Positions 5,945 to 31,756 of a stretch of DNA of 32,000 bases are shown here, in pieces. Below the pieces are notes generated by a model. The model did no database searches. It was not told the origin of the DNA and saw nothing but the letters and a program-made list of their open reading frames with translations. Source of the DNA: Candidatus Nanosynbacter sp. BB002 (GTDB lineage: Bacteria; Patescibacteriota; Saccharimonadia; Saccharimonadales; Saccharimonadaceae); assembly GCF_037013405.1 (NCBI RefSeq), contig NZ_CP146064.1:720001-752000 (forward strand), given 5' to 3'. The stretch's first letter is position 1. Each line of letters begins with the position of its first letter. The position numbers and the translations under genes are program-made.

Positions 5945-6647
5945 CTTTCAATCTCCTCTCTACTCGGGTCATCACACGGGTAAATATCGCGGTCAACGCC
6001 AAGTACATCACCGCTGCAGCAAACAATGACTGAAACGCCGTGGCAGTTTGAAAGCGAATATTATCAGCGCCGCGCATGATGTCATTTAGCCCAATCCAGC
6101 CGACGACTGAGGTCTCTTTCAGTAGGGCGATGAATTCGCTGATCAGCGCTGGCAAAGAATTTTTGAGTGCTTGTGGCAAAATCACTAAACGCATAGCCTG
6201 CCAGCGACTAAAACCCAGCGAACGCGCTGCTTCCATTTGTCCCTTATCAACGCTCTCGATGCCACCGCGAATGATCTCGCCAATGTAGGCGCCACTGTTG
6301 ATACCAAAGGCAATGGCCGCCACAAAAATCTTCGGCATGAATTGATATGAGCCAAAGACGACGTAGTACATAATTAACAGCTGGACCAGCAGCGGCGTGC
6401 CTCGAATGATGTCGACATACACTTTGCCAAGCCACGCTAGCGGATTCCAGCGACTCAGTCCTTTGGCCCACGAGTAGCGACCGAGCCACTTAACCGGTCG
6501 TACGTCCGAGGTTCGCAACAGGGCGATAATGATACCAATGGCCGTACCGAGAAGCAGCGACAAAACGGTCAAAACCAACGTTACCTCTAGACCGTGCCAC
6601 AAATACAGCCACCGACCGTCGCCGAAAATCACCTCCAGGAAATTCAC
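5931..6647 (-). CDS. Polar amino-acid ABC transporter permease (HisM/GlnP family)
   Basis: 238 aa with 5 predicted TM helices and an EAA-like loop (EAARSLGFSRWQAMRLVILPQAL). GTG start in a GTGA overlap with the stop of the SBP gene. Confidence 0.88.
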   Translation of the reverse strand: MNFLEVIFGDGRWLYLWHGLEVTLVLTVLSLLLGTAIGIIIALLRTSDVRPVKWLGRYSWAKGLSRWNPLAWLGKVYVDIIRGTPLLVQLLIMYYVVFGSYQFMPKIFVAAIAFGINSGAYIGEIIRGGIESVDKGQMEAARSLGFSRWQAMRLVILPQALKNSLPALISEFIALLKETSVVGWIGLNDIMRGADNIRFQTATAFQSLFAAAVMYLALTAIFTRVMTRVERRLKDGSE

Positions 6648-7468: not shown

Positions 7469-7475
7469 GCTTAGT

Positions 7476-7504
7476 AGTATACGCGCTTTATTACAAAATG
7501 ATAA
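7476..7504 (-). promoter_or_regulatory. Candidate promoter of the amino-acid ABC operon: TTATCA-N17-TATACT-N7-ATG
   Basis: Read on the minus strand: -35 TTATCA (7504..7499), 17-nt spacer, -10 TATACT (7481..7476), 7 nt, then the ATG at 7468. No SD. Confidence 0.4.
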
Positions 7505-7536
7505 GCCCTAAGTTCAGCATTGTTCCTCACGTATAG

Positions 7537-7545
7537 TGGTATAAT
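7537..7545 (+). promoter_or_regulatory. Extended -10 promoter TGGTATAAT, 8 nt upstream of the ATG of the sulfatase-family gene
   Basis: TGGTATAAT at 7537..7545, then TAGATAGT, then the ATG at 7554. No SD. Divergent from the ABC operon promoter. Confidence 0.45.
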
Positions 7546-7553
7546 TAGATAGT

Positions 7554-11288: not shown

Positions 11289-11363
11289 TCCCTTCCGTTC
11301 CTATCAATCACAGATACCTACTTCCGTGTGGCTTGAGCCATTCAAAGGTGCGCTCATAGCAAG

Positions 11364-11398
11364 AAAAAGCGCTCCAGCCATCAACCGGAACGCTTTTT
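11364..11398. terminator. Candidate bidirectional intrinsic terminator between convergent clpB and the FtsX-permease gene
   Basis: Hairpin AAAAAGCGCTCC-(11-nt loop)-GGAACGCTTTTT. GCG/CGC and TCC/GGA pair around one C-A mismatch, with an A-tract 5' and a T-tract 3'. Confidence 0.45.
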
Positions 11399-11426
11399 GA
11401 TAGATTGTCCTCAGACCGGAGGCACG

Positions 11427-13655
11427 CTACTCGGTTTGGTTAGCCTCCGCCCGCGTCAGCTTGTCGACCATCGGCAATATCAAGTAAATACCGATGATAG
11501 CTGCCGCCAGACCAGCACCAACGATGGCAAAGTAGGTTGGTGTTAACACCGGCTTCAGTGTCGTCGAGAACATCTTCGTGAATACTGCCCCCGTCCAAAC
11601 ACCGATACCACACGACAGAACCGAGGTGATCAGCAGCGGCGCCACCGATTCAACCATCACCAAACGCTTCAGTTGAATGAGGCGCATACCACCGAGACGC
11701 AAAGTATATAGCGAACGGCGACGCTCCATTAGCCCGCCAATCGTCGAGACAACCAGGCTCGCTACCGCCACAAATAACGTCACGCCAATACCAATATAGG
11801 CTAAGCTGGCAAATTCGCGAATCGTTGGATTGATATGCGGTTTTTTGGAATCAGTGCCGCCCACTACGTATGTCAGATCGTACTGGTTAGCGCGCATCAC
11901 AACCATGCTACGTAACTTCTCAAGATCATTGTCTGATTTGACCGTCACTAAATATTCTTTGGCGCCGCTAGTGTCAATATTGTCGGCCATCAACGACACA
12001 TTTTTGACCACTGGCGCGTCAAAATTCAACAGCGCAAATTGGTCGGGCCGAGCATTACTTGGACAGGTGTGCTCAGTGTATATTGCCAGATCCTGGCAGC
12101 GAATTACACTGCCATCCTCGCGTGGATAGATCGTTGCTACTGACGTGACATACGACTGCTGGTTCAGCTGCTTCGCCATATCACCTGGCAGTGAACGGCC
12201 AATGACAGCTGCGGTACCATGCTTCAACTGTGAGTAACCGTTGTCTTTGATAGCCTGAACATTTAAGTTCTCAATACCACTGGTTGCTGTCAGGTAAAAG
12301 CTACCAGCAAACAACGCCAGCACCACCCCACTCACACCACGGAAAACCGTTCGTGAATGCACTGCCGTACGCTTACCAGCGATCAGCATTGAACCATTAT
12401 TCGCCCAGCGCGCCGCCAGTAGCGACAGCTTATTCGTCAGCCAGCCACCAGTCAGGACGAGCCCGAACATCACCAGCAGTAGCGCCGCCAGTAGCAATAT
12501 AGATGGAATAGCCGATTCTTTATGTGCCGTCAACCAATCCAGACCCGGCTTTGACGACAACCAAACAAAGATGGCGATACCAGTTGCTGGTACCAACGGC
12601 CGCCACCCGCGTAGTTTCTTTACCTTTTCAACCGAACGTGACACACCCAGTGGCGAAATTTGCGCTCGGCGCATCCGTCGCCAGTTAACAAACGTCGTCA
12701 GACCCAATGTCAAGCCAATAATCAAGGCGTATTGCGTGGTAGTCAACGCTAAATCACCAGGATTAAACCGCATCCCGCTCAGCTTGAAAGCTTGCAGCGG
12801 CGCTTGTAATAGCCCAAACGCGCCCAGGCCAATCACCACACCGACCACTGATGCTAGCAACGACTCCAAGAGTAATATCCGTGTTACCTGCCGCTTGGAC
12901 GCGCCGATCAACCGCAAGGCAGCATAGCGTTTTTCACGTTGTGCCGCACCCAGCTGTGTCGCCACTGACACGAAAATGACGATCGGAAACAGTAAGATGG
13001 TTCCACCAACGCCAAGTACAGTGATAGATATAGGATCTAGTCCGACATTTGATGTTAGACCATTCGCATCCGTCCGGTAAACATTAGCAAAGTAGGGAGC
13101 TTGTCCTCGAGTTTTCGCGGCAGCATCACTTGCCGCCACTTCATCAGCGCTGGCACCACGTACCATCATGAGAGCATCTGGGCCGCTAACATATTCACTA
13201 GGGAGTACGCCGAGATACTTAGTGTTACTACCAAAGCGCGCCAAGATATCATCCTCAGGGTGTTGAGCCACCACATCAGCCAACGCTTTCGATAAGTAAT
13301 ACTCGCCCGGACCTGGCGTTTTTAGCTTAACAAACTGCGGCGATTTAGCCGTACCGTACATCGAGTAGGTTTGGATATATTGACCGCGCCATTTTGACGC
13401 ATTGCCAAGTCGCACAACATTACTAATTCTTAATGGCTCAATACCAGCAATTGGTTGCTGTGAAGCCTCTTTGCGACTAGCTTGGTGTGCCGCCAGGCTG
13501 ATGGCTGATCCTCCAGCGCGTCTCATAAGCCCATTGATACCAGCCGTAAAGCAGCACACTAGTACGATCCCCAGCGCCACCGCCGCCGTCGTCAAGCCCA
13601 GACGCGCAAACGACTGGCGGCCAGACTTTTGTAGTAACATCCAACTAACGCTCAT
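11427..13655 (-). CDS. MacB/FtsX-type ABC permease with duplicated module (742 aa)
   Basis: Two repeats of TM helix + large extracytoplasmic domain + 3 TM helices, the FtsX-domain pattern (LRLIGASKRQV..., LRLGGMRLIQL...). TGATG junction with the ATPase gene. Confidence 0.82.
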   Translation of the reverse strand: MSVSWMLLQKSGRQSFARLGLTTAAVALGIVLVCCFTAGINGLMRRAGGSAISLAAHQASRKEASQQPIAGIEPLRISNVVRLGNASKWRGQYIQTYSMYGTAKSPQFVKLKTPGPGEYYLSKALADVVAQHPEDDILARFGSNTKYLGVLPSEYVSGPDALMMVRGASADEVAASDAAAKTRGQAPYFANVYRTDANGLTSNVGLDPISITVLGVGGTILLFPIVIFVSVATQLGAAQREKRYAALRLIGASKRQVTRILLLESLLASVVGVVIGLGAFGLLQAPLQAFKLSGMRFNPGDLALTTTQYALIIGLTLGLTTFVNWRRMRRAQISPLGVSRSVEKVKKLRGWRPLVPATGIAIFVWLSSKPGLDWLTAHKESAIPSILLLAALLLVMFGLVLTGGWLTNKLSLLAARWANNGSMLIAGKRTAVHSRTVFRGVSGVVLALFAGSFYLTATSGIENLNVQAIKDNGYSQLKHGTAAVIGRSLPGDMAKQLNQQSYVTSVATIYPREDGSVIRCQDLAIYTEHTCPSNARPDQFALLNFDAPVVKNVSLMADNIDTSGAKEYLVTVKSDNDLEKLRSMVVMRANQYDLTYVVGGTDSKKPHINPTIREFASLAYIGIGVTLFVAVASLVVSTIGGLMERRRSLYTLRLGGMRLIQLKRLVMVESVAPLLITSVLSCGIGVWTGAVFTKMFSTTLKPVLTPTYFAIVGAGLAAAIIGIYLILPMVDKLTRAEANQTE

Positions 13656-18094: not shown

Positions 18095-18697
18095 TCAAAA
18101 TGACATCGCCTCCAATTCCCGCGGTAAAATCTCCTGCACCTCCACCGAACCTACCACTAAATGATAGCCGTATAAGTCCGACGGCAAATCACGCTCGACC
18201 GAACGCCAATTAACTGGGCGATTTTCATCAAAATAATCCAGTAGTTCTGCGTTCAAAAAATGGTCGCGCGGCAAGTCAACTGAACCATCCTGATTGATGA
18301 CCAGCGCTATCGACAAACCCGATGTCACGCCATCTTCATTTTTAGCATACGCCGCCGTCACCAGATGGACCACTGGCTCAAATTCCAACACTGATTGATC
18401 GCTCGCCTCCACCTGCGCCTGACCGCGACGCGCTAGCTGCTTATTAATTTCTGTTGTTAATTCCTCAACACTCGGCTTACCGTCAACCGCTCGGCAATAG
18501 TCGCAACCATCTGCCGCTTCGACATATTCCAGCAGTAAATCCATATCGACGTCAGTGTCTTTAACACCATGCTGCGACAATTGCTCCACCATTTCATGCA
18601 GCGCGCCTAGCAAACTATAATCATTAGCATTTCTAGCAGCATCACCGATGCGGATAATGGCGCGAGCGATGGTGATAGGATTTTTAGACTTACTCAT
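18095..18697 (-). CDS. Hypothetical acidic protein (200 aa), no recognisable domain
   Basis: Long ORF with normal composition, D/E-rich, with one CxxC (GCDYCR). It has its own TACAAT-N6-ATG element (18709..18695) immediately after the hsdR stop. Confidence 0.6.
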   Translation of the reverse strand: MSKSKNPITIARAIIRIGDAARNANDYSLLGALHEMVEQLSQHGVKDTDVDMDLLLEYVEAADGCDYCRAVDGKPSVEELTTEINKQLARRGQAQVEASDQSVLEFEPVVHLVTAAYAKNEDGVTSGLSIALVINQDGSVDLPRDHFLNAELLDYFDENRPVNWRSVERDLPSDLYGYHLVVGSVEVQEILPRELEAMSF

Positions 18698-18733: not shown

Positions 18734-21700
18734 TCAATCCAACAAACTCGCTCCGCCACCAGCGTCATACGTCGCGCGTTTATAGCTCCACTCGTTACCA
18801 TAACGCTTGGCTTGCTCCAATACCATATCGGTTGCCAATGACTGCTGGTCTGGCGGATATCCATACTTTGCCAACGTCTTTTTGACGTTAACTTTCAGTT
18901 TTGCCTGAACATTCCTGCGCTCTGCCCAGTCAATCGTGGCATCACGACGCACCTGCTCTAACAATACTTTCGCGATATCACGTAGCTGCGCGTCACCCAG
19001 TACTTCGCGGGCACTGCCATTTTCAACCAGCGCATCGTAAAAGATAATCTCATCCTCACTGAGGCCATCAACTGCGCCATTCTCAACAGTTTGGCGCACT
19101 TGCTGTCCGATGTTGATTAATTCCTCAATCACCTGCGCCGCCTCAATCGTCCCATTTCTATACCGCGTCAAGGCTTGGTTGAGCAAGTCAGAGAACTTCG
19201 TATCCTTGGCATAATTTCTCGAAAATCGTAGCTTGATTTCATCAGCGAGCAGCTTTTGCAGAGCTTCCACCGCCAAATTCTTGCGCTCCATGTTACGAAT
19301 TTCCGCCAAAAACTCATCACTCAAAATCGACAGTTCCGGCTTTTCTAATCCCGCCGCCTCAAACACATCAACCACACCCACTGGCGCAATTGCTTTATCA
19401 ACAATTTGTTTCAGCGCGCTTCGGTACTCAGCATCAGTCACAACTGTCGAGCTCGACACTTTCTCTAGCCGAGCTTTCACCGCCTGAAACAGCGCCACTT
19501 CCTCACGAATCTTCAACGCCTCGGGCCTCGGCATAGCCAGCGCAAAGGCTTTACTCAGTTCCAAAACATGCTGTTTCAATCGCTTCTCACCATCTTCCAA
19601 CCCTAAAATATATTCCTCGGCATCCAAAATAATTTGCAGTTGCCGGTCGGTTGGCGCCGTAAAATATCGCTGATAATCAAAGTTACCAAATAAATCGCGC
19701 ACCACCTCGTAACGCATCTGCATCTGCGCCACCGCCTCAGCAATATCAAGCTGCGGTGCGCCCCGCCCGCCGCTTTGCGTATAGTCAGAAATAGCATCGC
19801 GCAGCGCCCCTGCCACACCCAGATAGTCAACCACCAAACCACCGGTTTTTCCAGGGAACACTCGGTTGACTCGTGCAATTGCCTGCATTAAATTATGATC
19901 CTTCAATGGTTTATCCAGATACATAGTGTGCATATTTGGTACATCAAACCCCGTCAGCCACATATCGCACACAATCACGAGCTCAAGCGGATCGTTCGGA
20001 TCTTTGATGCGCTTTTCGATCGCTTTCACCCGCTGTTTATTACGAATATGCGGCTGCAAATAGTTAGGGTCGCTAGCGCTACCGGTGATAATCACCTTGA
20101 TCGCACCACGTGCGTCATCATCACTATGCCAATCCGGCCGATACGCCACGATTCTCTCATACAAATCAGCCGCAATACCGCGACTCATCGTCACGATCAT
20201 ACCCTTACCGCTCAGCACACTTTGCCGAGCCTCAAAATGCTCAATGATATCTAGCGCGATAGTATTCAGCCGCTCGCTATTACCGACGATGGCTTCTTTT
20301 TGTGCATACTCGGCCTTCAACGCATCCTGACGACTCAGTTCTTCGCCCTCCAGCAAATCATCAACTTCCTTATCCAGCCACTGCCGCGTTGCCTCGTCCA
20401 TATTCAAATCAACCAGCCGACTCTCATAATAAATCGGCACTGTTGCACCATCTTTCACCGCCTGCTCGACATCATAAATATCGATATAGTCGCCAAACAC
20501 TGCTGGCGTTGACTTATCATCCGTTTCAATCGGCGTACCCGTAAAGCCAATGTAGCTCGCACCCGGCAAGGCATCACGCATATATTTGGCATAACCATAT
20601 ACTAGCTGGGCGTCGCTAGCTCGAACATGTGCCTTCAAACCGTACTGGCTACGATGCGCCTCATCTGCCATCACGATGACATTGCGTCGATCGGTCAAAA
20701 TTGGCAATTTATCCTCGTCATCCTCAGGCGAGAACTTCTGGATTGTTGTAAAGATAATCCCACCTGCTTCGCGCTGCAGTAGCTTCCTGAGTTCACTGCG
20801 CGAATCAGCTTGTTTCGGATCTTCTCCCAGCAGCTCGCGACAGGCGCTAAACGTACCGAATAATTGACCATCAAGATCATTACGATCCGTCACCACCACG
20901 ATGGTTGGGTTATGCAAATCGCGCGATTTCATCAGCTTACCAGTATAAAACACCATACTCAAGCTCTTACCCGACCCTTGCGTATGCCAAACCACGCCAG
21001 CCCGTTGGTCACCGCGTTCACTACTAGCCGCCAGCGTCCGATCAAGCGCTTTATTCACCACCCAATATTGATGATAAGCGGCAACTTTTTTGATTAGTTT
21101 ATCGCCGTCGCTCCGCTCAAATACGATAAAATTCTGCACCATATCCAGCAAACGTTCAGGCGTACACGCACCGCGCAGCAGCACTTCCAACATCGGCACA
21201 TTGCCAACTTCTTTCTCGCCGTCAATCGTTTTCCACGGCATCATTCGTTCCAGCGGGCTGGTTATCGTCCCTATTTCCGCCTCTAGTCCATCACTGGTTA
21301 TACACAGTTCATTGAACCGAAACAAGTCGCTAATCTCTCGCTTGTACGTCTGGATTTGCTGATACGCCGCTACCAAATCCGCCTTCGTATCAGCCGCATT
21401 TTTTAGTTCAATCACCACCAAGGGTAGTCCATTCACAAATAGTACAATATCTGGCCGGCGATTATAATCGCCCTGCAAAACCGTCAGCTGATTGACCGCC
21501 ACAAAATCATTGTTTTTGAGCGAGGTAAAATCAACCACCCGTACAATATCGTGTTTCACTTCACCACTTGATGTACGGTACTGCACCGGCACGCCCGCCA
21601 CTAACAACTGATGGAAATCATGATTATTCTCAATCAAGCTTGGTTTACTAATCTGCGTCAAACGCCGCATCGCTTCATTCAAGGCTGGTCCTGGAATATG

Positions 21701-21868
21701 CGGATTGAGACGCACCAGTGTACTCTGTAGCCGCCCAGGTAACACCACCTGCCTGAGCTCACGCTCAGCCGCAGCACCATCTGGACCAATATCTGGTCCG
21801 TGTAGAATTTGCCAGCCGATACTAGCCAGGACGTCAAGCGCGTATTGTTCGATGTGGGATTCGGTCAT
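18734..21868 (-). CDS. hsdR: Type I restriction enzyme R subunit (HsdR)
   Basis: N-terminal PD-(D/E)xK nuclease motif (RPDIVLFVNGLPLVVIELKNA). SF2 helicase motif I is HTQGSGKS and motif II is MADEAHRSQ, with later motifs LTGFD and QAIARVNR. I prefer the ATG at 21868 (MTESHIEQY) over the track's GTG at 21886. Confidence 0.95.
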   Translation of the reverse strand: MTESHIEQYALDVLASIGWQILHGPDIGPDGAAAERELRQVVLPGRLQSTLVRLNPHIPGPALNEAMRRLTQISKPSLIENNHDFHQLLVAGVPVQYRTSSGEVKHDIVRVVDFTSLKNNDFVAVNQLTVLQGDYNRRPDIVLFVNGLPLVVIELKNAADTKADLVAAYQQIQTYKREISDLFRFNELCITSDGLEAEIGTITSPLERMMPWKTIDGEKEVGNVPMLEVLLRGACTPERLLDMVQNFIVFERSDGDKLIKKVAAYHQYWVVNKALDRTLAASSERGDQRAGVVWHTQGSGKSLSMVFYTGKLMKSRDLHNPTIVVVTDRNDLDGQLFGTFSACRELLGEDPKQADSRSELRKLLQREAGGIIFTTIQKFSPEDDEDKLPILTDRRNVIVMADEAHRSQYGLKAHVRASDAQLVYGYAKYMRDALPGASYIGFTGTPIETDDKSTPAVFGDYIDIYDVEQAVKDGATVPIYYESRLVDLNMDEATRQWLDKEVDDLLEGEELSRQDALKAEYAQKEAIVGNSERLNTIALDIIEHFEARQSVLSGKGMIVTMSRGIAADLYERIVAYRPDWHSDDDARGAIKVIITGSASDPNYLQPHIRNKQRVKAIEKRIKDPNDPLELVIVCDMWLTGFDVPNMHTMYLDKPLKDHNLMQAIARVNRVFPGKTGGLVVDYLGVAGALRDAISDYTQSGGRGAPQLDIAEAVAQMQMRYEVVRDLFGNFDYQRYFTAPTDRQLQIILDAEEYILGLEDGEKRLKQHVLELSKAFALAMPRPEALKIREEVALFQAVKARLEKVSSSTVVTDAEYRSALKQIVDKAIAPVGVVDVFEAAGLEKPELSILSDEFLAEIRNMERKNLAVEALQKLLADEIKLRFSRNYAKDTKFSDLLNQALTRYRNGTIEAAQVIEELINIGQQVRQTVENGAVDGLSEDEIIFYDALVENGSAREVLGDAQLRDIAKVLLEQVRRDATIDWAERRNVQAKLKVNVKKTLAKYGYPPDQQSLATDMVLEQAKRYGNEWSYKRATYDAGGGASLLD

Positions 21869-21883
21869 ATTATAGTAATTATA
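21869..21883 (-). promoter_or_regulatory. Possible internal promoter in the RT-hsdR gap (two TATAAT boxes)
   Basis: The minus strand reads GTGTATAATTACTATAAT-ATG. The first TATAAT is 9 nt from the ATG and the second abuts it. No SD. hsdR could equally be expressed by read-through from upstream. Confidence 0.25.
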
Positions 21884-21894
21884 CACCAGATGCC

Positions 21895-23448
21895 CTAGCT
21901 TGGTATGTCTCTAAAAAGGTCAACCTCCTGACGATCAATAGATATTTTATTCGTCTCCCTGATGCCTTGTAGCATATCGACGTCAACTATACTTGTGTCT
22001 CTAACTGTTTTCATTATATCGTCCTTTAGCCAATCAATACACCAGATAATAGAATTATCAATATATGCTCTTTCACTGACTAACCGGGTTAATAATTCAT
22101 TAAATTGCAAGTTCGGATCAATAGAGTAAGATACTCGCTGCAACCAAATATCTAATAAGCCAGTGTTAGGTATAATCTTGAACTTATCAAGAATTTTTTG
22201 AACAAGGAGTCCCCTCCTTGACTCACTCGCCCCACGGATAGTTAGACTCGCAACCGCCATCGCCATATTGTAATACTTAGGGTTTTTAATTGCCATATTA
22301 ACTACAATACTCAGCATAACTTCTGGTTTTTCATAATCACGTAAGCTTTTCCCTTTATCTAAGTAATCAAGAAGCTCCTCGTGAAACATATTTAGCTGGC
22401 GAGACACCATACCTGAATTAGGATATTTATAACTAGCTGCATAAATCTGCATTAACCATTTTGCAAAATTATCTTTTTCTTTCTTTATATTCGGTATGAA
22501 TAATTCTTCGATCTTATCCTTTTTAATAGAACTCAAGACTATATCGCTGCTCTTTTTGGTTTTCTGTGCATTTAATCTGAGACCAAGTATTGCTAAAATT
22601 TCAGTTAACTCTTTCAGTATACGAGCTCCTAGATCTAGCCTATTGGTAAAAATTCGATAGTCATCCCTGTAGCGAACAATGGAATATTCTCTTTTATCAA
22701 TATCTTTTACAGCTTGAGCTAAAAGACTATCAGCGTATGCAAAGATAAGCTCAGCAATAAAATCAGAAAGAGTATTTCCCTGGGGTATCCCGTTTGTCTG
22801 TCGATGATTCATCATCTGAAAATACTCATCAATTTTACCTCCCAGAGATTTTTTATCACGATTAGCATAAGCCTCTTCTTTGCCATGAAGAGCCCATGAA
22901 ATAGAATGCGTATATATTGATCCATAACAGTTTGCAACATCAGTTTCTAATACATATTGAAAATCAAGACCTTTAGTCGCACAGTTTTGTTCAAATTTCT
23001 CCCACCAAGCACGTATTTGCTCCGCTTTCGCGCTTTTCTTTTTTGAAGGTTGCATTGGAATACTAGCAACTTCAACATTACAGTCCCTCCTTAACTCAGA
23101 AAATCGCTTTTTTATAACACTCCAATTATCCTCTTTGGTAATATAATGCACTAACCCTACATAAAGAACTGGATTTATTATCTCAAATGGCCTCCAAGCT
23201 AATTCACCATCTTTGTTGCCGTAAATCACTTTATTTACATCATGTCTATCTCTTGGGTCTTTCTTCTTACGACTACCCTCTTCTGGATCAAAAAAGTAAT
23301 TAACATCATAACCACCCATCTTACTTGACACGGCTTGAAGTATTGGGTCAAAGTTAAAATATTCAGGCAAATCAAAGTTTACATAACTTTTACCGTCCAG
23401 CAAAAAAGCACGAGCTTGCTTATGATCAAATTCTAATATATTAGCCAT
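21895..23448 (-). CDS. Reverse transcriptase (RNA-directed DNA polymerase), Abi/UG-like defence-associated type with a C-terminal alpha-helical domain
   Basis: RT motifs by my residue count: motif 1/2 WRPFEIINPVLYV (~85-97); motif A LETDVANCYGSIYTH (D170); motif B NGIPQGNTLSDFIAELIF (~219-236); motif C VRYRDDYRIF (Y260-D263, DNA 22671..22660); motif D/E LGLRLNAQKTK. The ~215-aa C-terminal extension has no recognisable thumb/X/En/integrase motifs. TAATG overlap with hsdS. Confidence 0.9.
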   Translation of the reverse strand: MANILEFDHKQARAFLLDGKSYVNFDLPEYFNFDPILQAVSSKMGGYDVNYFFDPEEGSRKKKDPRDRHDVNKVIYGNKDGELAWRPFEIINPVLYVGLVHYITKEDNWSVIKKRFSELRRDCNVEVASIPMQPSKKKSAKAEQIRAWWEKFEQNCATKGLDFQYVLETDVANCYGSIYTHSISWALHGKEEAYANRDKKSLGGKIDEYFQMMNHRQTNGIPQGNTLSDFIAELIFAYADSLLAQAVKDIDKREYSIVRYRDDYRIFTNRLDLGARILKELTEILAILGLRLNAQKTKKSSDIVLSSIKKDKIEELFIPNIKKEKDNFAKWLMQIYAASYKYPNSGMVSRQLNMFHEELLDYLDKGKSLRDYEKPEVMLSIVVNMAIKNPKYYNMAMAVASLTIRGASESRRGLLVQKILDKFKIIPNTGLLDIWLQRVSYSIDPNLQFNELLTRLVSERAYIDNSIIWCIDWLKDDIMKTVRDTSIVDVDMLQGIRETNKISIDRQEVDLFRDIPS

Positions 23449-24584
23449 TATATCTTAATCTCTCCGGAAATTAATTTTGGTAAAAGCAAATCACGAATGT
23501 TAGATAAATAATCTATTTGCTTCTTGTTTTTATGTATCATATCAAACAATGGTCGCACTCTCTGCTCAAAAGCATTAAAATCGCAATCTGGTAAATTAGC
23601 AATCTCCAAAAGCTCTATGTGCTTTGGATAAATATGCGGCTGACCAGAGCCAGTTTGCATATCATATATCTCTTTTTGCTTATTCTTGAGGAATAAATAG
23701 TAGGTATAAACATATTTGGTAATTGTTGAGTCAATGTACGAAGAGTCTGCCGACCAGACTGGTTCACCCCAAACAGATACAAAGCCAGCATTTGCTCCGG
23801 ATGCACTTATCGTAATAACTGGTGCAACTGTGTTTGCTTTATTATGAAATCCAGCTGGTTTCAGGCCACCGCTAATAACCGGCGTGTCACCACAAATCAT
23901 ATCTCTAACTTGCAAACTTCTACCTCTTTTTGGGTGAAACTTTTTTCCTAAAGGTATGGTCTGTATATTACCATTACTCTGCTTAGCTTTATCAACAAAA
24001 TAATGACGAAAGAGAGCTTGACCGAGCTGCTCGAGGGTTTCATTCATGTGGCGATTGAGCTCGATTTTTTCATCAAGACTGCCGAGGATATTGGCAATTT
24101 TCTTTTGTTGGTCGAGTGGTGGCAGATTAAGTTCCATATTAGGCACCGCTTTGACTGATAAGTGCATTACTGTACTGCCATTGCTATGTGCTAGCATATA
24201 CTCTCGAGTAATTGGAGACTTTAGATAATAAAAAAGATACCTAGGATCAATGACTTCTGTATTTGTTACTATTATTTTCGACAGATCCAACGAAAAGCAA
24301 GCACTCCTGCCTATATCTGGCATAATTATAGGACTACCGATAATTTCACGATTCTGAGTAAGATCTGTGTTTGCTATCAGGATGTCGCCAGACTCAACAT
24401 ATTGCGATGGTTTTATTTGTCCTGCGTAATATTTTATGCCATCAGCATTATATCCCCCACCCCTAGCAACAGACTTTAGGTTCACAAAAGCAATTCCATT
24501 TTCTGAATTAGAATAATCGGCACTTCTGTATGAAATACCTTTGATAATCTCTGCAACCTCACCAAGTAGGATCGTTTTTGTCAT
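23448..24584 (-). CDS. hsdS: Type I restriction enzyme specificity subunit (HsdS)
   Basis: Two target-recognition regions separated by the conserved central helix (LPPLDQQKKIANILGSLDEKIELNRHMNETLEQLGQALFRHYF). The conserved C-terminal helix is IDYLSNIRDLLLPKLISGEI. Confidence 0.92.
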   Translation of the reverse strand: MTKTILLGEVAEIIKGISYRSADYSNSENGIAFVNLKSVARGGGYNADGIKYYAGQIKPSQYVESGDILIANTDLTQNREIIGSPIIMPDIGRSACFSLDLSKIIVTNTEVIDPRYLFYYLKSPITREYMLAHSNGSTVMHLSVKAVPNMELNLPPLDQQKKIANILGSLDEKIELNRHMNETLEQLGQALFRHYFVDKAKQSNGNIQTIPLGKKFHPKRGRSLQVRDMICGDTPVISGGLKPAGFHNKANTVAPVITISASGANAGFVSVWGEPVWSADSSYIDSTITKYVYTYYLFLKNKQKEIYDMQTGSGQPHIYPKHIELLEIANLPDCDFNAFEQRVRPLFDMIHKNKKQIDYLSNIRDLLLPKLISGEIKI

Positions 24585-26638
24585 TTTTTTATTGCCCTTT
24601 CGGTAGCCTCATCCGCGTTCGTATAATCAATTGCAAGCCTGTCGCGTTCAGTTTTTAATTCATTTTCGATAAACTTATGTCTACACTCCACGTCTGCAAA
24701 TATATCACTCCATTTTCTAACATAGATTTTACAATTATCCTTTGAGAATATTAGCCCTTTTTCTTTCTCCCCATGCCCTTTATTGGTGTCAATTTCACCC
24801 TCTATGTAGCCTGATTCATTAAATTTATTACCAACAAGCACAAAATCCCAGTAAGTATTATCACCATTAAACCGAGAGTCTGAAAATATTGTTCGTTGAT
24901 ATCTCTTGATCTGAGACACTTCTTTCTCCCCAAGCAAAACAGCGGGTCGTTTCAGCTCTATTACTAGGTTATTTATGCGATCGTTTTCAATACTTTTTCT
25001 ACATAAAAATAAATCCATCTCCTTATTCTTATCTGGAGATTCCATATTCACATCTTGCTTTTTGCCGCCACGTAGTATATATAGATATTCTGACAATGCT
25101 TTTTCAAATTTAGCTTCAGTACTAGAAACAAGATTATATTCCTCTCCAAAAACCCAAAAATTATGATCCAAAACTTTTTGCACATGATCAACCTCACGAG
25201 AATTGAAGCTATCATTAAAGACTATCTCCTTTAGAGCATCAATTGTAGTATAACGGTTTTGAATCATCTTAATAGTTTGAATTATGGAGTTTAGTTTATT
25301 CACCTTTAATAGGTCCGCTAATTGTTTCTGTTCTTGATCATCAAGCCGCACAACAGCGTCGATAATTGTATATATCTGATCGCGCTGATTTGAATCTAGA
25401 AGTGCGTTTAGAAGATGTATAAAAGTCTTTCTCTGCTCTATACTCGAATTACCTTCACCAAATATTTTCGGTTGGATTTTATAAATATCTTTTATGAGAG
25501 TTTTTAGTTCGTTATTGCGAGGAATTTCCCAGCTGTTATTGACTTCAGGAATAATGTTCTCTTTTTCATACTTTTCAACGAGATCATCTGCCATCTTTTG
25601 GAGATGCGGACTACGCATGCGACGTAGGTAATCGTTAATTTCGGAAATAACATATTTAAATTCCTCGTCTCGCTTACTATTAAACTTTTGCTCTTTATTT
25701 TGTAGAGTGCTTTGGTCATAATCAATTTTGTCCTCGTATGAGAACATGTCAAAATAATCACTTCTTATATATACGCTATGATAAAATTTATCGCCTTTAT
25801 TGTTCAGTAGGGTTGTAGATTTATAGTTCTCCTTGCCAGTTGAATCTATTAGATAATATCGCGAGAATTCTTTATTTAGTTTTTTCTTCCACTGAATATA
25901 CTTAACATCAAAGCGAGTTGATGTTGCATCGTGAATAATCTTCTCATCCCTTTCACCAGCTATCATTTCTCTATAGTCAAGAGGACTACCATTAATAGAT
26001 ATAGAGAACATCTTATCTTTGAATAATTCTAAAAACCAACAAAATTCCTGTAACAGGTATTGTTTTACGGTAGTCTCAATATTGCCCGAAGACAGCTCGC
26101 GTATCCCCTCAAATGTAACCTTTGTTGACGTCCCATGCTCATATGGTATTTCAGAAACAGGCGAATGAGCACCCGTATAACTATGCAAATCATCAGACTT
26201 GATTTCTATATCATATTTATAAAGCTTACTGTTTTTTTCATATACCGTTGTCCATCGTGCAATATTTGCAAACGTAAAAAAAGTAAGTCGACCCACTCCA
26301 TTTTTGCCATGCACCAAAGAATGATGCCTGGAGTCTGTCTTATTTAGCGCCTTTTCCGATTCATGAAAAGGCTTAAACTTCACAGACAATAAACCCTGAG
26401 GTATTCCACTTCCATTATCTGCTATAGTAATACTTCTTAACGATCCTAACTCATTTTCTTCATAGCTAATGTCTATACTAGTTGCACCTGCATCAAATCC
26501 ATTCCAAATATATTCGGCGATTGATTCCTGTGGCGAATAAGCACTTAATATAGATTTAACTCCGTCTCCACCAAGCTGAATCTCGTCCGAAACAATTGCT
26601 TCTGCTAGACTATCTTTTAATACTGTACTGTTAGTCAT
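24581..26638 (-). CDS. GHKL (Bergerat-fold) ATPase fused to a C-terminal PD-(D/E)xK nuclease-like domain (685 aa)
   Basis: N-box [16 protein letters not shown] (ExxxNxxDA), G1 box IADNGSGI (DxGxG), G2 box [11 protein letters not shown]. The C-terminal part has ...[15 protein letters not shown]...EMDLFLCRK-x12-NLVIELKRP...SQIKRYQ (D542/E561/K563 by my count; the E561 codon is at 24958..24956). It overlaps hsdM (ATGACTAA) and hsdS (ATGA). Confidence 0.85.
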
Positions 26639-28124
26639 TTTTATATGATTCTTTTATTCTTTTTAGGTTTATAGAGATAGATTTTTCTAACTCACGGCTC
26701 TTCGCAAACTGCCCTTCAAGCTCAGCCGTTAACCGGGCAAATTTCTCGACGAACGGCTCACCGTCTTCTTCTATTTCCTCAACGCCCACGTAGCGACCAG
26801 GTGTCAATACATAATCATACTGCTTAATTTCTTCTAGATCGGCGACTTTACAAAAACCCGGCTGATCAGTGTAATCCGCACTAGCGGTTTTGTAATCATG
26901 ATATGTCTTCGCCACCCGAGCAATGTCTTCTGCGGTTAGTTCACGGTTACGGCGGGTGACCATTTTACCCAAATTACGCCCATCGATGAACAGCACTTTG
27001 CCGTGGCGGTTCGCCCGGTTGCGCGACACGAACCACAGACAGCATGGTATGGCTACATTGAAAAATAGCTGACTCGGCAGTGTGACAATAGCGTCAACCA
27101 TATCATTAAGAACCAGCTGTTTGCGGATATCACCTTCGCCACCAGTTTGGCTACTCATACTGCCGTTTGCCAGCACGAAACCCGCCGTACCACGTGGGCT
27201 CAAGTGGTGAATCATATGCTGAATCCACGCAAAGTTAGCATTACCCTTTGGCGGTAGACCATATTTCCAGCGCGGGTCAGCCTGCAAGTGTTCTTGACCC
27301 CAGTCGCTAATGTTAAACGGCGGATTGGCCAAAATGTAATCAGCTTTCAGATCAGGGAGCTGGTCATCCATCAGAGTGTCGCCACGTTTGATATTCGCAT
27401 CAATTCCCCGAATTGCCATATTCATTTTAGCGAGTCGCCAAGTGGTTTCGTTTAGCTCCTGACCATACACTGCAATGTCGCTGACACGACCAGCGTGCTC
27501 CTCGACAAACTTCTCACTCCAGACAAACATACCGCCACTACCGCAACATGGGTCGTACACGCGCCCGCTGTATGGCTCAAGCATTCCTACCAGCAATTTC
27601 ACGATGGAGCGCGGCGTGTAGAATTCACCACCGTGTTTACCCTCGCTGTCGGCAAACATACCCATAAAATATTCGTAGACTTGACCAAGTAAATCTTTGG
27701 AGCTGGCAGTGTCGAATTTGATATTTGTAAATAAATCGATAAGTTCACCCAAGCGACGCTTATCTAGAGCTTCACGAGCATAATTTTTCGGCAACACACC
27801 CTTCAGACTAGGGTTGTCTCGTTCAATTGCCTCCATAGCACTATCGACTAGAACGCCAATTTCTGGCTGCTTGGCGCTCGCCACCAGGTGTTCCCAACGA
27901 GCCTCCTTGGGAATCCAAAAAACATTCTCCGCCAAATACCAATCCCGATCTTCAGGATCATAGTTCTCATCAATCGCTGCCTGATGTCGCACCGAAAACG
28001 CATCTGAAACATATTTTAGAAAAATCAGCCCCAATACCACATATTTATAATCCGACGAGCTGATATTACCCCGTAGTTTATCCGCCGCAGCCCACAACTG
28101 CTTTTCAAGCTCCCTTGTATTCAT
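26631..28124 (-). CDS. hsdM: Type I restriction enzyme methyltransferase subunit (HsdM), N6-adenine
   Basis: N-terminal HsdM_N-like region ([32 protein letters not shown]). AdoMet motif I is [12 protein letters not shown] and catalytic motif IV is LANPPFN. Confidence 0.95.
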
Positions 28125-28130
28125 AGATAA

Positions 28131-28139
28131 ATTATATCA
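28131..28139 (-). promoter_or_regulatory. Extended -10 promoter TGATATAAT, 6 nt upstream of the hsdM ATG (leaderless-type)
   Basis: The reverse complement of 28131..28139 is TGATATAAT, then TTATCT, then the ATG at 28124. No SD. It lies in the 28-nt gap after the radC stop. Confidence 0.5.
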
Positions 28140-28152
28140 GATTGGGGGTCGT

Positions 28153-28806
28153 TTACTCTGAGTGTAGCAGACTTTTGTAGTCAGTTTTCGTAACAATAAT
28201 ATGATCATTAAGCGTAATGCCAAGCAATTTTCCCGCTTCTGCCAGCCTATTCGTAACATCTTTATCAGCCTGACTGGCTTCCAAACCCCCACTCGGATGA
28301 TTATGCGCCACGATGATGCTGGCGGCGCGGTCGGCAATGGCATCAGCGAAGACCTCGCGCGGGTGCACCAGACTGGCCATCAGCGTACCGATAGTCACAA
28401 CCCGCTTGGCGATCAAACGATTCGCGCCGTCCAGCGTCAAGCAGACAAAATATTCCTGTTTTTTATCGCGAATGTCGGCCAGTAGCTCGACGGCTTTTTC
28501 TGGGCCGTCAATAATTGGCTGGTCGCTATCCAGCAAATACCGCCGCGCCAGTTCCAAACTCGCTAAAATCACCGGGATTTTCGCTTCACCCAATCCAACC
28601 ACGCCACGCAGATCATCATACGAAATATCGCCGCCTTTTTGACGCACAATTTTCAGCACCTCGCGCGCAATTTTACCGACATCCGCCTGTTTATTACCGC
28701 TGCCGATAATCGCCATCAAGAGTTCCAAGTCGCTCAGCCGCGCCGTACCGTAACGCACTAGTTTCTCGCGGGGACGATCATCGGGACGGCGATCTTGCAT
28801 TTTCAT
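28153..28806 (-). CDS. radC: RadC-like JAB/MPN-domain protein (UPF0758)
   Basis: N-terminal HhH-like region (RPREKLVRYGTARLSDLELLMAIIGSG) and a C-terminal JAMM motif (IIVAHNHPSGGLEASQADKDVT). I place the start at the ATG at 28806 (MKMQDRRP), which forms a TGATG junction with the crtEb stop. The track start at 28872 would overlap crtEb by 67 nt. Confidence 0.85.
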   Translation of the reverse strand: MKMQDRRPDDRPREKLVRYGTARLSDLELLMAIIGSGNKQADVGKIAREVLKIVRQKGGDISYDDLRGVVGLGEAKIPVILASLELARRYLLDSDQPIIDGPEKAVELLADIRDKKQEYFVCLTLDGANRLIAKRVVTIGTLMASLVHPREVFADAIADRAASIIVAHNHPSGGLEASQADKDVTNRLAEAGKLLGITLNDHIIVTKTDYKSLLHSE

Positions 28807-29666
28807 CACACACCCCACACCTTCATCAATAACGTCACGGTTACCACCGCCCCAGCGACATAGTTCAGCCACAAGAAACGTCGCCAGCCCGCCCGTGCCT
28901 CCGCCGAGCGTTCATCACGAATTCGTACAAACGGCAGTAGATTGATGATATATAAGCTGCCTGCAGATGCCACTGGCCATGCCGCCACACCCAGGCACGC
29001 TACCAACCCGACCGCCGCCACGTACAGCAGTATCGCTAACCAGACGGTCGACCGCGCACCAAACACCGTGGCGATGGAGCGAATCTTGGCTTCGCGGTCT
29101 GGCACAATATCCTGCACCGCACCAAACGCCTGACTAGCCATACCCCAGCAAAAAAATGCGACAGCCACCAACCATCCCGCTTGCGTCGTGCCAACCAACG
29201 AATAGGCATACAGCAGCGGACCGACAAAATGTAGACTTGAGGTCACCGAATCCAGTAATGGCACTTCCTTAGACCGCAGCCCCTTCGCGCTATATGCCAC
29301 CACAAAAAACAACACCACCGCTAACACCAACGCACTTTGCCAGTTGCCCAACAGCACCAATGCCAGCACGAATGGCAGGCATGATAGCACCGCCGACCAC
29401 ACGATCAACCGATGATATTTCCGTGGCGTCACGGCGCCTTCGACACCGCCCTTGCGGGGATTTCGCATATCTGATTCATAGTCGCACACGTCATTAATGC
29501 CATACATCAGCAAATTGTACGGGATGAGGAAAAACAGCGTACCAATAATCAGCCGTGCGTCAATAGCCCCGCCCATGACCACATAGCCCGCCGCAAACGG
29601 ATAGGCCGTATTCACCCACGACAGCGGTCGCGAGGTCATAAATAAGACGTTAATTTTTTCTTTCAC
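28806..29666 (-). CDS. crtEb: UbiA-family prenyltransferase, lycopene elongase type
   Basis: Polytopic UbiA-fold protein with Asp-rich motifs (NDVCDYESD; AVQDIVPDREA). The N-terminus SRPLSWVNTAYPFAAGY is typical of lycopene elongases. It is the last gene of a crtB-crtI-crtYe-crtYf-crtEb order. GTG start with GGAAGGGG upstream. Confidence 0.75.
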   Translation of the reverse strand: MKEKINVLFMTSRPLSWVNTAYPFAAGYVVMGGAIDARLIIGTLFFLIPYNLLMYGINDVCDYESDMRNPRKGGVEGAVTPRKYHRLIVWSAVLSCLPFVLALVLLGNWQSALVLAVVLFFVVAYSAKGLRSKEVPLLDSVTSSLHFVGPLLYAYSLVGTTQAGWLVAVAFFCWGMASQAFGAVQDIVPDREAKIRSIATVFGARSTVWLAILLYVAAVGLVACLGVAAWPVASAGSLYIINLLPFVRIRDERSAEARAGWRRFLWLNYVAGAVVTVTLLMKVWGV

Positions 29667-29946
29667 GATTTAACCCCTTCCAAATCGCTGGCACGGCCAA
29701 CCCCGCCAAGAGTGAATAAAACAAATCTTCAATCGGCGCTAGCCCCACGTGTATTCCCAAAATTTTATCTGCAGGATAGGTAAACATACCCAAGTAAATC
29801 AGTAGTGAATCAAACACAATCGTCGTCACCAGCAATACCGCTAGCGTCGCCCACACCGCACGGCCAAATGTTAATAATTTGCGCCATGCCAGCACACCTA
29901 GTACTGTCGTCAAAAACAGCAGATTGAGTACTATATATGTCGCCAT
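29650..29946 (-). CDS. crtYf: Lycopene-cyclase-domain small membrane protein (heterodimeric carotenoid cyclase subunit)
   Basis: 98 aa, 3 TM helices, motif GLAPIEDLFYSLL (PxE(E/D) cyclase motif). The position matches crtYf of actinobacterial C50 clusters. A C40 CrtYc/Yd role cannot be excluded. Confidence 0.7.
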   Translation of the reverse strand: MATYIVLNLLFLTTVLGVLAWRKLLTFGRAVWATLAVLLVTTIVFDSLLIYLGMFTYPADKILGIHVGLAPIEDLFYSLLAGLAVPAIWKGLNRERKN

Positions 29947-30245
29947 CGCTTTACTCCCGCCCGGTAGACTACCAGGCTAAAATAACTCAAAAACAGCAAG
30001 AAGAACAATTCTTCCAACGGAAATTCTGGAAATAAATACACGCCCGACATATACGGCGAATGTCCGCTGAGAAAGATACCGAGCGAGATACCACAAACAT
30101 CCCACACGATGAACGCGCTGGTCATAATGAGCACGGTCAGTACTGTACGGCGAGCATCATACCAGTAGGCTAGCCTATACCACCAGTCCAGCACTGCCAT
30201 CCCCACCCAACTAACAATAATTCCCGCTAAATACAGCCAACTCAT
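29931..30245 (-). CDS. crtYe: Lycopene-cyclase-domain small membrane protein (heterodimeric carotenoid cyclase subunit)
   Basis: Motif FPLEELFFLLFLSYF, 3 TM helices. I place the start at the ATG at 30245 (MSWLYLAG), which forms an ATGA junction with the crtI stop. The track start at 30323 would overlap crtI by 82 nt. Confidence 0.7.
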   Translation of the reverse strand: MSWLYLAGIIVSWVGMAVLDWWYRLAYWYDARRTVLTVLIMTSAFIVWDVCGISLGIFLSGHSPYMSGVYLFPEFPLEELFFLLFLSYFSLVVYRAGVKRWRHI

Positions 30246-31756
30246 ATATCCTCCTTGGTGAGCGGTCCACGACAGCGGTTTCCCGTGATGCGCTTGTAGG
30301 TCAGCTGCGCACTGATCAAGCACATCGGCAGACCTATCCCCGGTAGCGTCCCCGCACCAACATAATACAAATTTGGCACTTTTTTACTGCGATTACGCGT
30401 ACGGAACATAACGCTTTGGCTGAGTAAGTGCGATTCACCACCAAAGGCGTTGTACTGCCAGGCATTAAATTGCTCGCCAAACTGCTCTGGACCATAGACA
30501 AGCTGAGAAACAATTCGCTCAGGCAGATCAGGCTCGCCAGTCATCTCAACAAGAATCTGGATTATCTTATCCTTGCAAGACACTTCTTGTTCTGGCGTCA
30601 GCGTTATGCCAGCTGGTAACGGCAGCAATACAAGCAAATTTTCATGCCCCAGCGGCGCCAAGTCAGGATCGGTCTTGGATGGGTTGCAGACGTAGAGCGA
30701 GGCATGCTCTGGCACTGTGCCAGTTTCATAAATCGCCGCAAAGTTTTCACGCCAGTTTCTCACAAAGTAGAGATTATGATGTTGTAAATTCGACAATCCC
30801 CCTTTGACACCCAGCGAAACCAGCAACGCGCCTGGCCCCGGCTGGCGTTTTTGCCAATACTTTTCGGGGTAGCTTCGAGCAGCTGGCGGTAATAATTTGG
30901 TTTCAGTATGATGGATATCGGCTGCTGAAATTACCAAGTCAACCGCAATGTGTTCGCCGTTCATCAGTTCAATACCCGTGGCCTGATGACCATCCAGCAC
31001 AATCTGCTTTACCGGCGAATTATAATGATATTTCACACCCAAACTTTTTCCCAACCGCTCCATGCTATCCGCCAATTCCATCATGCCACGCCGCGGATAA
31101 TACACACCGCTACGAAAATCGAGATGACTCATCAGGCTGTAGACAGCCGGTGCTTGAAACGGGCTGGAACCCAAAAATACCATGTGATATTCTAGCAATT
31201 GTTTAAGCCGAAGATCCCGAAACCAGCGGCTCACATGAGCGTCCAGTGTCCGCCACACTAGCGGCAACATGGTCGGTAACTGGCGCAGAAGCGGCCACTG
31301 TAACACATCACCAACCCGCGTGAAATTGTTATACAGCGCGTGCTTCACCGCCACCTCATACACCTGGCTGCTACGCGTGACATAGCGCTGTAGTTTTTCA
31401 CCTGCACCGGGTTCAATTGCCTCAAATATTGCCATATCTTTATCAACATCACCCTGAATAATCAGTGGCTCATAGCCTTCACTCCACACCTTGTAGCCAG
31501 GCGAAAATCGCACCAAGTCGAGTTCTTGCTCAGCCGATCGATCAAACAATTGATAATACTGCTCAAAAATCTCTGGCATCAAATACCACGACGGGCCAAG
31601 ATCAAAGGTAAAGCCATCTTGCTTGACCACTTGAATCCAACCACCGGCTGACGGGTTCTTCTCGTATACCGCCACCTGGTACCCTGCTTTCGCCAGCAAA
31701 TTTGCCAGTGCCAGCCCGCCGTAGCCCGCGCCGATGATCACCGCTTTCTTTGTCAT
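30242..31756 (-). CDS. crtI: Phytoene desaturase (CrtI family)
   Basis: N-terminal FAD fold VIIGAGYGGLALANLLAKAGYQVAVYEKN, GPSWYLMPEIFE, and the C-terminal carotenoid-binding region YYVGAGTLPGIGLPMCLISAQL. Confidence 0.92.
   Translation of the reverse strand: MTKKAVIIGAGYGGLALANLLAKAGYQVAVYEKNPSAGGWIQVVKQDGFTFDLGPSWYLMPEIFEQYYQLFDRSAEQELDLVRFSPGYKVWSEGYEPLIIQGDVDKDMAIFEAIEPGAGEKLQRYVTRSSQVYEVAVKHALYNNFTRVGDVLQWPLLRQLPTMLPLVWRTLDAHVSRWFRDLRLKQLLEYHMVFLGSSPFQAPAVYSLMSHLDFRSGVYYPRRGMMELADSMERLGKSLGVKYHYNSPVKQIVLDGHQATGIELMNGEHIAVDLVISAADIHHTETKLLPPAARSYPEKYWQKRQPGPGALLVSLGVKGGLSNLQHHNLYFVRNWRENFAAIYETGTVPEHASLYVCNPSKTDPDLAPLGHENLLVLLPLPAGITLTPEQEVSCKDKIIQILVEMTGEPDLPERIVSQLVYGPEQFGEQFNAWQYNAFGGESHLLSQSVMFRTRNRSKKVPNLYYVGAGTLPGIGLPMCLISAQLTYKRITGNRCRGPLTKEDI

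Follow-up and report, generated by a model that had tools for sequence, protein, structure and literature searches.

The stretch of DNA analysed here (the window: 32,000 nucleotides of contig NZ_CP146064.1 from Candidatus Nanosynbacter sp. BB002, positions 720,001 to 752,000) carries a type I restriction-modification (R-M) locus with two passenger genes in its interior. Five consecutive, tightly packed open reading frames (ORFs) on the minus strand encode HsdM, a GHKL-ATPase/nuclease, HsdS, a reverse transcriptase (RT) and HsdR. A preceding sequence-only reading had described the same five genes as one tight block; every ORF lies where it had been placed, and the family assignments are firm. 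The hsdM gene (26631..28124, minus strand) encodes a methyltransferase subunit of 497 aa (Pfam N6_Mtase 6.7e-113 and HsdM_N 1.3e-27; PADLOC MTase_I 3.6e-206), and hsdS (23448..24584, minus strand) a specificity subunit of 378 aa with two target-recognition domains (TRDs), recognised by two Methylase_S stretches and, over its full length, by PADLOC Specificity_I (2.8e-81). The restriction/translocase subunit gene hsdR (minus strand) extends from 18734 either to a conserved ATG (18734..21868, 1044 aa) or to an upstream GTG (18734..21886, 1050 aa); the start kept in sister genomes is the ATG at 21868. HsdR has the domains HSDR_N (2.4e-45), SWI2_SNF2 (3.5e-80) and T1RH-like_C (2.1e-114), matches TIGR00348 (1.2e-179) and contains the DEAH motif. 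With HsdM, a two-TRD HsdS and an HsdR consisting of nuclease, superfamily 2 motor and C-terminal domain all intact, the locus is, judged by its domain content, an intact type I R-M locus of a Nanosynbacter-like saccharibacterium.

The first passenger occupies the slot between hsdM and hsdS (24581..26638, minus strand) and encodes a paraMORC3-type protein of 685 aa, composed of a GHKL ATPase domain, a middle domain, a helical linker and a C-terminal PD-(D/E)xK nuclease. The second passenger lies in the slot between hsdS and hsdR (21895..23448, minus strand) and encodes a protein-priming RT-like polymerase of the AbiP2 family, 517 aa long and with an RVT_1 domain. All four junctions read as previously described: hsdM and the GHKL gene overlap by 8 nt (ATGACTAA), the GHKL gene and hsdS meet at ATGA, hsdS and the RT gene at TAATG, and 26 nt separate the RT gene from the ATG of hsdR at 21868 (8 nt from the upstream GTG). 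The overlapping frames support the earlier proposal that the passengers are translationally coupled to hsdM and hsdS, which we regard as probable. GC content at third codon positions (GC3) marks the three middle genes as foreign in base composition: it is 0.30-0.32 in the GHKL gene, hsdS and the RT gene (0.30 for each of the two passengers) versus 0.48-0.52 in hsdM, hsdR and the flanks.

An extended -10-like element, TGATATAAT (28131..28139, minus strand), lies 6 nt upstream of the hsdM ATG and is a candidate promoter of an hsdM-GHKL-hsdS-RT unit; AATCTGATATAAT at this position is invariant across six related loci and the neighbouring intergenic bases are variable. It had been taken for the only promoter-like element of the block, which is not the case: a perfect TATAAT box (21878..21883, minus strand) lies 9 nt upstream of the hsdR ATG, a candidate separate hsdR promoter. 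GTATAAT occurs unchanged in six loci, each time equally far from the conserved ATGACCGAATC, regardless of the gene upstream. In the clade of Nanosynbacter lyticus TM7x, two genes on the opposite strand precede hsdR, so that hsdR must be transcribed on its own there, and the TATAAT box is still kept. Conservation of the -10 boxes among related loci is more informative than generic scans: a sigma-70 scan was at chance level (28 promoter-like hexamers versus 25.1 +/- 4.4 expected, several of them within the AT-rich cassette), and the counts of a terminator scan were also at chance level and uninformative. The claim that all five genes share one transcript stands in part. The hsdM-GHKL-hsdS-RT genes are probably co-transcribed from the conserved -10 box at hsdM, which is well supported because the reading frames overlap; the premise is weakened for hsdR, which is probably transcribed from its own conserved -10 box, and a single transcript spanning hsdR too is not required. 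The conserved boxes lie just 6-9 nt from the ATGs of hsdM and hsdR, which suggests that mRNAs in this saccharibacterial lineage may be leaderless or near-leaderless.

The GHKL protein of the window has an N-terminal HATPase_c_3 domain (Pfam, 7.2e-17), which is present in all 24 family members examined. Across the alignment of these 24 homologues, the Bergerat motifs (E42, N46, D74xG76xG78 and G111-G116 with G111, G114 and G116) and the PD-(D/E)xK triad D542, E561 and K563 are invariant. An AlphaFold model of the full protein has a mean predicted local distance difference test score of 77.6, with values of 80-93 over the GHKL and middle-domain region. Foldseek searches with this model returned TRAP1/Hsp90 (N and M domains), MutL N40, MLH1 and MORC3/4 at about 1e-10 over 310-440 aligned columns; a separate model of residues 320-685 gave weak matches, all of them to PD-(D/E)xK nucleases (Cap4 nuclease, EcoO109I, MUS81, McrC and EndoMS). 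A sub-threshold match to HSDR_N_2 is found in 22 of the 24 members. Eight of the 24, the window protein not among them, match the PADLOC type II restriction-enzyme model PDLC03419 (best 1.8e-8).

ParaMORCs have been placed mainly in R-M contexts, with a nuclease-bearing paraMORC3 subset that is often stand-alone and prevalent in Bacteroidetes and Proteobacteria (Iyer et al. 2008). All four paraMORC3 features were found for the 685-aa protein and its family: an intact GHKL domain, an S5-type/middle domain, a C-terminal nuclease of the restriction-endonuclease fold with D-ExK and a patchy, stand-alone distribution. Proteins with a GHKL plus nuclease organisation are now classed as type I-D Shedu (Gu et al. 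2025; Nat Microbiol 2025), and one of these, VcSduA (A1552VC_00276), defends E. coli as a single gene, requires both ATPase and nuclease and does not act by abortive infection (Nat Microbiol 2025). Shedu membership of the GHKL family could not be confirmed: the Shedu signature DUF4263 (Pfam) was absent from all 24 members even at E <= 1, the PADLOC SduA model PDLC00401 matched 14 of the 24 weakly (best 0.0017) and the window protein at 0.009 over aa 436-501, outside the catalytic core, and no solved Shedu was among the top Foldseek matches of the nuclease domain. For this reason the protein is filed as paraMORC3-type and described as working like VcSduA; it fits a paraMORC3-type protein with VcSduA-like architecture. 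A family member from V. cholerae (P0270), found by a search seeded with a gammaproteobacterial member, was considered as VcSduA itself and rejected, as its numbering differs (E28/K537 versus E27/K557).

The GHKL family is large and length-conserved (at least 1199 matches; 352 species-level genomes). It ranges over Patescibacteria, Chloroflexi, Bacteroidota, Cyanobacteria, Firmicutes, Proteobacteria and some archaea, with a patchy distribution and many members in Bacteroidota and gammaproteobacteria; the relatives in E. coli, Klebsiella, Salmonella, Aeromonas and Pseudomonas are always annotated as "ATP-binding protein". Full-length GHKL-nuclease members with 40-43% identity are also found in archaeal metagenome-assembled genomes (MAGs) of Woesearchaeota and an uncultured archaeon (L014, L029, L080), which implies inter-domain transfer.

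The assignment of the second passenger is more specific. PADLOC AbiP2 matches aa 1-513 of the RT at 2e-169, with RT_UG14 next best at 8e-52, and the solved Abi-P2 (PDB 7R08, chain 7r08_A) matches aa 3-495 of 517 at 6.8e-72, across both the RT-like and the helical domain. Both YRDD (Y260-D263) and Y30 are invariant in 19 RT homologues, and Y30 aligns with Tyr61 of 7r08_A, the priming residue in Figiel 2022 (assuming that the numbering of the paper equals the chain index). By these matches the 517-aa RT is a full-length AbiP2 with an intact catalytic motif and priming tyrosine. It is 96% identical to TM7x_03560 of N. lyticus TM7x and belongs to a length-conserved family with at least 1904 matches. 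Abi-P2 carries out protein-primed, untemplated DNA synthesis as a trimer or hexamer (Figiel 2022), and the literature regards AbiP2 as a multi-domain protein that defends on its own. The residues that had been named from the letters alone (E42/N46, D74xG76xG78, D542/E561/K563 and YRDD) are thus invariant in their families, with DEAH present in HsdR, and the view that both passengers are of a defence type is borne out by the AbiP2 match and by the paraMORC3/VcSduA architecture.

How often the two families reside in type I operons was assessed in two censuses: 78 independent GHKL loci, with hsd genes counted within 10 kb, and 80 metagenomic loci of RT homologues with 37-61% identity, 55 of which have enough flank to judge. 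Genes of the hsd type are near GHKL in 18/78 loci, and in nine of these GHKL lies between two hsd genes. They are near the RT in 22/80 loci, and the RT is embedded in 24 of the 55 informative loci (~44%). Both families are strongly enriched in type I operons; a lack of such enrichment, which the sequence-only reading had said would count against it, was not seen. The position of GHKL differs by lineage: it lies between hsdM and hsdS in the window, between an hsdR of the EcoEI family and hsdS in nine Bacteroidota-type loci and 3' of hsdS in L049 and L077; embedded GHKL genes abut hsdS in every case. About 77% of the GHKL loci have no hsd gene within 10 kb, and inspection of upstream and downstream genes identified no recurrent GHKL neighbour outside hsd loci: upstream methyltransferases are rare (N6_N4_Mtase in 2/75, a C5 methylase in 1/75) and none is recurrent downstream. 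For the RT, hsdS is the directly upstream gene in 19 of the 22 hsd-linked loci, usually with overlapping stop and start codons and in the order hsdM-hsdS-RT-hsdR. On the RT tree, embedded members are widely spread but group together more than chance would give (18 switches versus 26.9 +/- 3.6 expected), and one sub-clade is nearly all embedded.

The two families are not enriched with each other. No GHKL gene was found in the 80 RT loci, and among the GHKL loci AbiP2 is present in L002 alone, from the lineage of the window itself. L028 initially counted as a second co-occurrence of RT and GHKL and was rejected, its RT being a group II intron RT (RVT_1 plus GIIM). Two further arrangements were seen in the neighbourhoods. 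Bacteroidota-type operons of the EcoEI family (L009:7195-16936; L006, L010-L012, L022, L027, L028, L047) hold up to three passengers in the order hsdR-GHKL-hsdS-DUF4062-AlbA_2/HATPase_c_4-hsdM. In L089:6124-9542, which has no hsd locus, an AbiP2-like RT with 57% identity overlaps the upstream SLFN-g3_helicase (PF09848) gene by 4 nt; the pair may be a two-gene module of an RT and a Schlafen-like helicase.

Sister genomes were compared at one chromosomal site, from radC to DUF167/deacetylase. Two MAGs, L001 and L002, share the locus at ~91-94% nucleotide identity. The window and L002 have GHKL in slot 1 (hsdM to hsdS) and AbiP2 in slot 2 (hsdS to hsdR). L001 also has GHKL in slot 1; its slot 2 holds a 196-aa ORF, a retron-type RT (RT_II-A, 4e-30) and an HTH/Panacea toxin-antitoxin pair. 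TM7x and seven other contigs carry RhuM and KAP_NTPase in slot 1, and in slot 2 AbiP2 together with a 1.37-kb opposite-strand PIN pair, the insertion lying precisely between RT stop and hsdR promoter. The two slots thus assort independently in sister genomes. This, together with the absence of GHKL from all 80 RT loci, speaks against the integrated three-layer system with a joint RT and GHKL nuclease that had been proposed from the sequence.

Some of this cargo merits description in its own right. Slot 2 of L001 (L001:13258-16860) contains, besides the 196-aa ORF, the retron-type RT of 314 aa (PADLOC RT_II-A, YYDD), a minus-strand ORF of 146 aa and an HTH_3/SocA_Panacea antitoxin-like gene that overlaps an ORF of 136 aa; the set may comprise a retron-like system, as yet unclassified, and a toxin-antitoxin pair. 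In TM7x (L085, CP007496.1), RhuM and KAP_NTPase occupy 6228-7895 between hsdM and hsdS, and the opposite-strand PIN-domain gene lies with a 264-aa ORF, which matches no family, at 10563-11847 between the AbiP2 RT and hsdR. On the metagenomic contig L081 (4774-13953), each of the genes hsdM, RhuM and hsdR is broken into two ORFs, and KAP_NTPase, hsdS and an RT identical in sequence to TM7x_03560 are intact: either R-M decay with retained cargo or an assembly error.

The breakpoints between related loci fall within hsd genes or at their ends. Homology to TM7x ends within hsdM at 26686, some 55 nt short of the stop codon. Breakpoints in the centre of hsdS lie at 23989 (L001, L002) and 24128 (TM7x), one at the 3' end of hsdS at 23497 (L002) and those at the 5' end of hsdR at 21892/21870. 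Identity to TM7x is 95.3% over the segment that runs from mid-hsdS to the RT stop, versus 88.7% in hsdM and 89.3% in hsdR; L001 shares just the other half, down to 23989, and L002 shares the RT but not TRD2. Insertion of the cargo by a transposon or integrase was rejected, because neither passenger is flanked by direct or inverted repeats. Allelic exchange by homologous recombination in conserved hsd segments would be the simplest reading of this pattern. Throughout, the passenger orthologues are 90-96% identical on many independent contigs and have no frameshifts.

The same-strand block is longer than five genes. A radC-like gene (28153..28872, minus strand; RadC 1.8e-39), the conserved left flank also in TM7x and other sister loci, ends 28 nt 5' of hsdM. 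On the other side, orf200 (18095..18697, minus strand) begins 36 nt 3' of hsdR and is followed after 19 nt by DUF167; orf200 has no Pfam, PADLOC or NCBIfam match. L084 has the gene, TM7x lacks it and L001 has unrelated DNA in its place, making the edge of the operon a third variable position. Further 5', beyond radC, the minus strand of the window (28806-31756) encodes a UbiA prenyltransferase, a 98-aa Lycopene_cyc protein, an adjacent 130-aa membrane ORF and a CrtI-like amine oxidase, a carotenoid-type cluster that one would not expect in a saccharibacterium with a reduced genome; in TM7x this position is taken by NrdD/radical-SAM genes.

We consider it likely that the junctions flanking hsdS of an intact type I system serve as cargo slots for interchangeable, autonomous single-gene defences that are co-inherited and co-expressed alongside the modification genes and share no mechanism. 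The cargo would be gained and lost together with hsdS half-alleles through homologous recombination, with the conserved 3' end of hsdM, the central and 3' regions of hsdS and the 5' end of hsdR as recombination anchors. The R-M complex would restrict unmethylated DNA; the GHKL protein, by analogy with VcSduA, may be a dimeric clamp, gated by ATP, through which its nuclease is licensed to attack phage DNA, and AbiP2, as its studied relative, may act as a trimer or hexamer that makes protein-primed untemplated DNA and aborts infection. The passengers would then meet phages that escape restriction. If each module acts alone, the linkage is therefore genetic (co-inheritance, co-expression and layered coverage) and not one of shared mechanism. 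Assignment of both passengers to characterised stand-alone systems had been named beforehand as an outcome that would speak against an integrated system: AbiP2 is such a system, and for the GHKL protein the assignment holds at the level of architecture only.

Several observations weigh against cargo slots as the full explanation. Adjacency to hsdS is strong for both families, at ~20-45% of loci versus ~1% for a random gene (a rough estimate, not a computed value), and the start/stop overlaps with hsdS recur among RT homologues that are only 37-61% identical. Hitch-hiking alone does not obviously need such overlaps, and a functional tie to the R-M complex would fit them too, as it would the RT sub-clade that is almost wholly embedded. 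The autonomous defence function of both passengers is a prediction, extrapolated from homologues of ~35% identity in the case of AbiP2 and from VcSduA, likened by its published description, in the case of the GHKL protein, whose nuclease domain is not confirmed as Shedu/DUF4263. The recombination model, finally, builds on a handful of related genomes.

PrrC in EcoprrI is the paradigm of a latent effector under the control of an R-M complex. With this precedent, the HsdM/S/R complex could silence the AbiP2 RT and/or the GHKL nuclease until a phage anti-restriction factor releases them. Embedded members of both families do lie flush with hsdS, usually with overlapping stop and start codons and across divergent type I families, and the embedding of 24/55 informative RT loci, with one sub-clade nearly all embedded, speaks for such guards as well. 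Still, we find this explanation unlikely. Near-exclusive embedding in type I loci, as for PrrC, is not observed: most homologues reside outside hsd operons (~77% of GHKL loci, with hsd genes near only 18/78; 31/55 informative RT loci, with hsd genes near 22/80). E. coli AbiP2 and VcSduA need no type I partner for defence, unrelated cargo (KAP NTPase, retron-type RT, toxin-antitoxin pairs) fills the same slots in sister genomes, and GHKL is found in different slots beside different HsdR families. In L081 the RT is intact and hsdM and hsdR appear split, a weak point from a single assembly. A narrower version is equally doubtful in our view: the hsdS-flush sub-lineages of AbiP2, and perhaps of paraMORC3, could be wired to the type I complex as latent effectors that are released when anti-restriction proteins disable HsdMSR. 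If true, such wired sub-lineages would make the operon a true multi-layer sensor-effector unit in the minimal genome of a bacterium of the candidate phyla radiation (CPR).

For the GHKL nuclease, a role as alternative restriction subunit can also be envisaged: a methylation-aware endonuclease for which HsdM/HsdS methylation marks the host DNA to be spared. ParaMORCs were proposed to work in this way within R-M systems, where they are mainly found, sparing methylated host DNA (Iyer et al. 2008); the constant abutment of embedded GHKL genes on hsdS, the PDLC03419 matches of 8/24 members and the weak HSDR_N_2 matches of 22/24 would agree with it. We regard it as improbable all the same, given that ~77% of the homologues have neither an hsd gene within 10 kb nor a recurrent methyltransferase neighbour, that the nuclease-bearing paraMORC3 subset is often stand-alone (Iyer et al. 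2008) and that in E. coli a single gene, VcSduA, is enough for defence. Least probable of all is that the passengers are inert or selfish cargo, decaying hitch-hikers or addiction-type genes with no present defence role: their base composition is foreign, toxin-antitoxin pairs also collect in the slots and a group II intron lies beside one related operon, yet both ORFs are full length with all catalytic residues intact, the orthologues carry no frameshifts and both families are large and length-conserved.

Read as a set of cargo slots, the locus illustrates the way in which defence genes travel in nature: single-gene defences unrelated to one another are swapped in two slots flanking a fast-evolving specificity gene, apparently through homologous recombination that involves hsdS halves. 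TM7x, which belongs to the lineage, is the only CPR bacterium that has long been cultivated and is genetically tractable, and it now has a phage. The link between AbiP2 and hsdS is quantitatively strong, at ~44% of informative loci, and testable; we found no explicit description of it in the literature on Abi-P2 with type I restriction, or on RTs with hsdS, hsdR or hsdM. A very large family of "ATP-binding proteins", including the members from E. coli, Klebsiella, Salmonella and Aeromonas, can moreover be re-annotated as sharing its architecture with a validated anti-phage nuclease.

Compared with known systems, the RT is closest to Abi-P2 of E. coli P2-like prophages (Odegrip 2006; Figiel 2022), with which it shares full-length homology, YRDD, the priming tyrosine, both domains (RT-like and helical), the organisation as a single-gene module and an AT-rich foreign origin. 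It differs in being only ~35% identical to the solved protein and in its position: Abi-P2 lies in a prophage hot spot, whereas the RT gene of the window follows hsdS and precedes hsdR in a type I operon on the chromosome of a CPR bacterium. The GHKL protein shares with paraMORC3 and VcSduA all Bergerat motifs, the MutL/Hsp90/MORC-like middle domain, the C-terminal PD-(D/E)xK nuclease with D...ExK and a wide, patchy distribution, often stand-alone and sometimes inside R-M loci; length and catalytic spacing are also similar to VcSduA (E42...K563 in the window protein, E27...K557 in VcSduA). Unlike Shedu, its family has no DUF4263 match (0/24) and only a weak one to PADLOC SduA, the comparison with VcSduA being one by description. 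Shedu genes do occur inside R-M systems (602/5499; Gu et al. 2025).

The PrrC gene of EcoprrI and the rlo genes of Campylobacter have, like the two passengers, hsd genes of a type I locus on either side. The anticodon nuclease PrrC depends physically on EcoprrI and is almost exclusively embedded (Payne 2024), whereas the GHKL and RT families occur mostly away from hsd operons and include stand-alone relatives. TgvAB offers another parallel: these defence genes adjoin hsdS in a five-gene type I operon, act without HsdR activity (TgvAB 2024) and are read as complementary layers, the differences being that TgvAB is a type IV restriction pair and that its operon has one slot, versus two in the window. 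Payne, Hughes, Fineran and Jackson (2024) describe as 'guilt-by-embedding' the general rule by which operons of type I R-M, BREX, DISARM and Hma often hold embedded, independently acting defence genes; their survey, in its accessible text, does not single out AbiP2 or GHKL-nuclease cargo or describe exchange with hsdS halves, and the supplements, as far as accessible, contain no AbiP2, Shedu or DRT strings. The sequence-only reading had held the arrangement to be experimentally uncharacterised, which is true of the exact pair and not of embedding in general (Payne 2024; Gu 2023/2025; TgvAB 2024). Embedded defence genes in type I operons are already known from PrrC, the rlo genes, TgvAB and these surveys, and the locus is not a new kind of system: its RT and GHKL pair is one of several interchangeable combinations.

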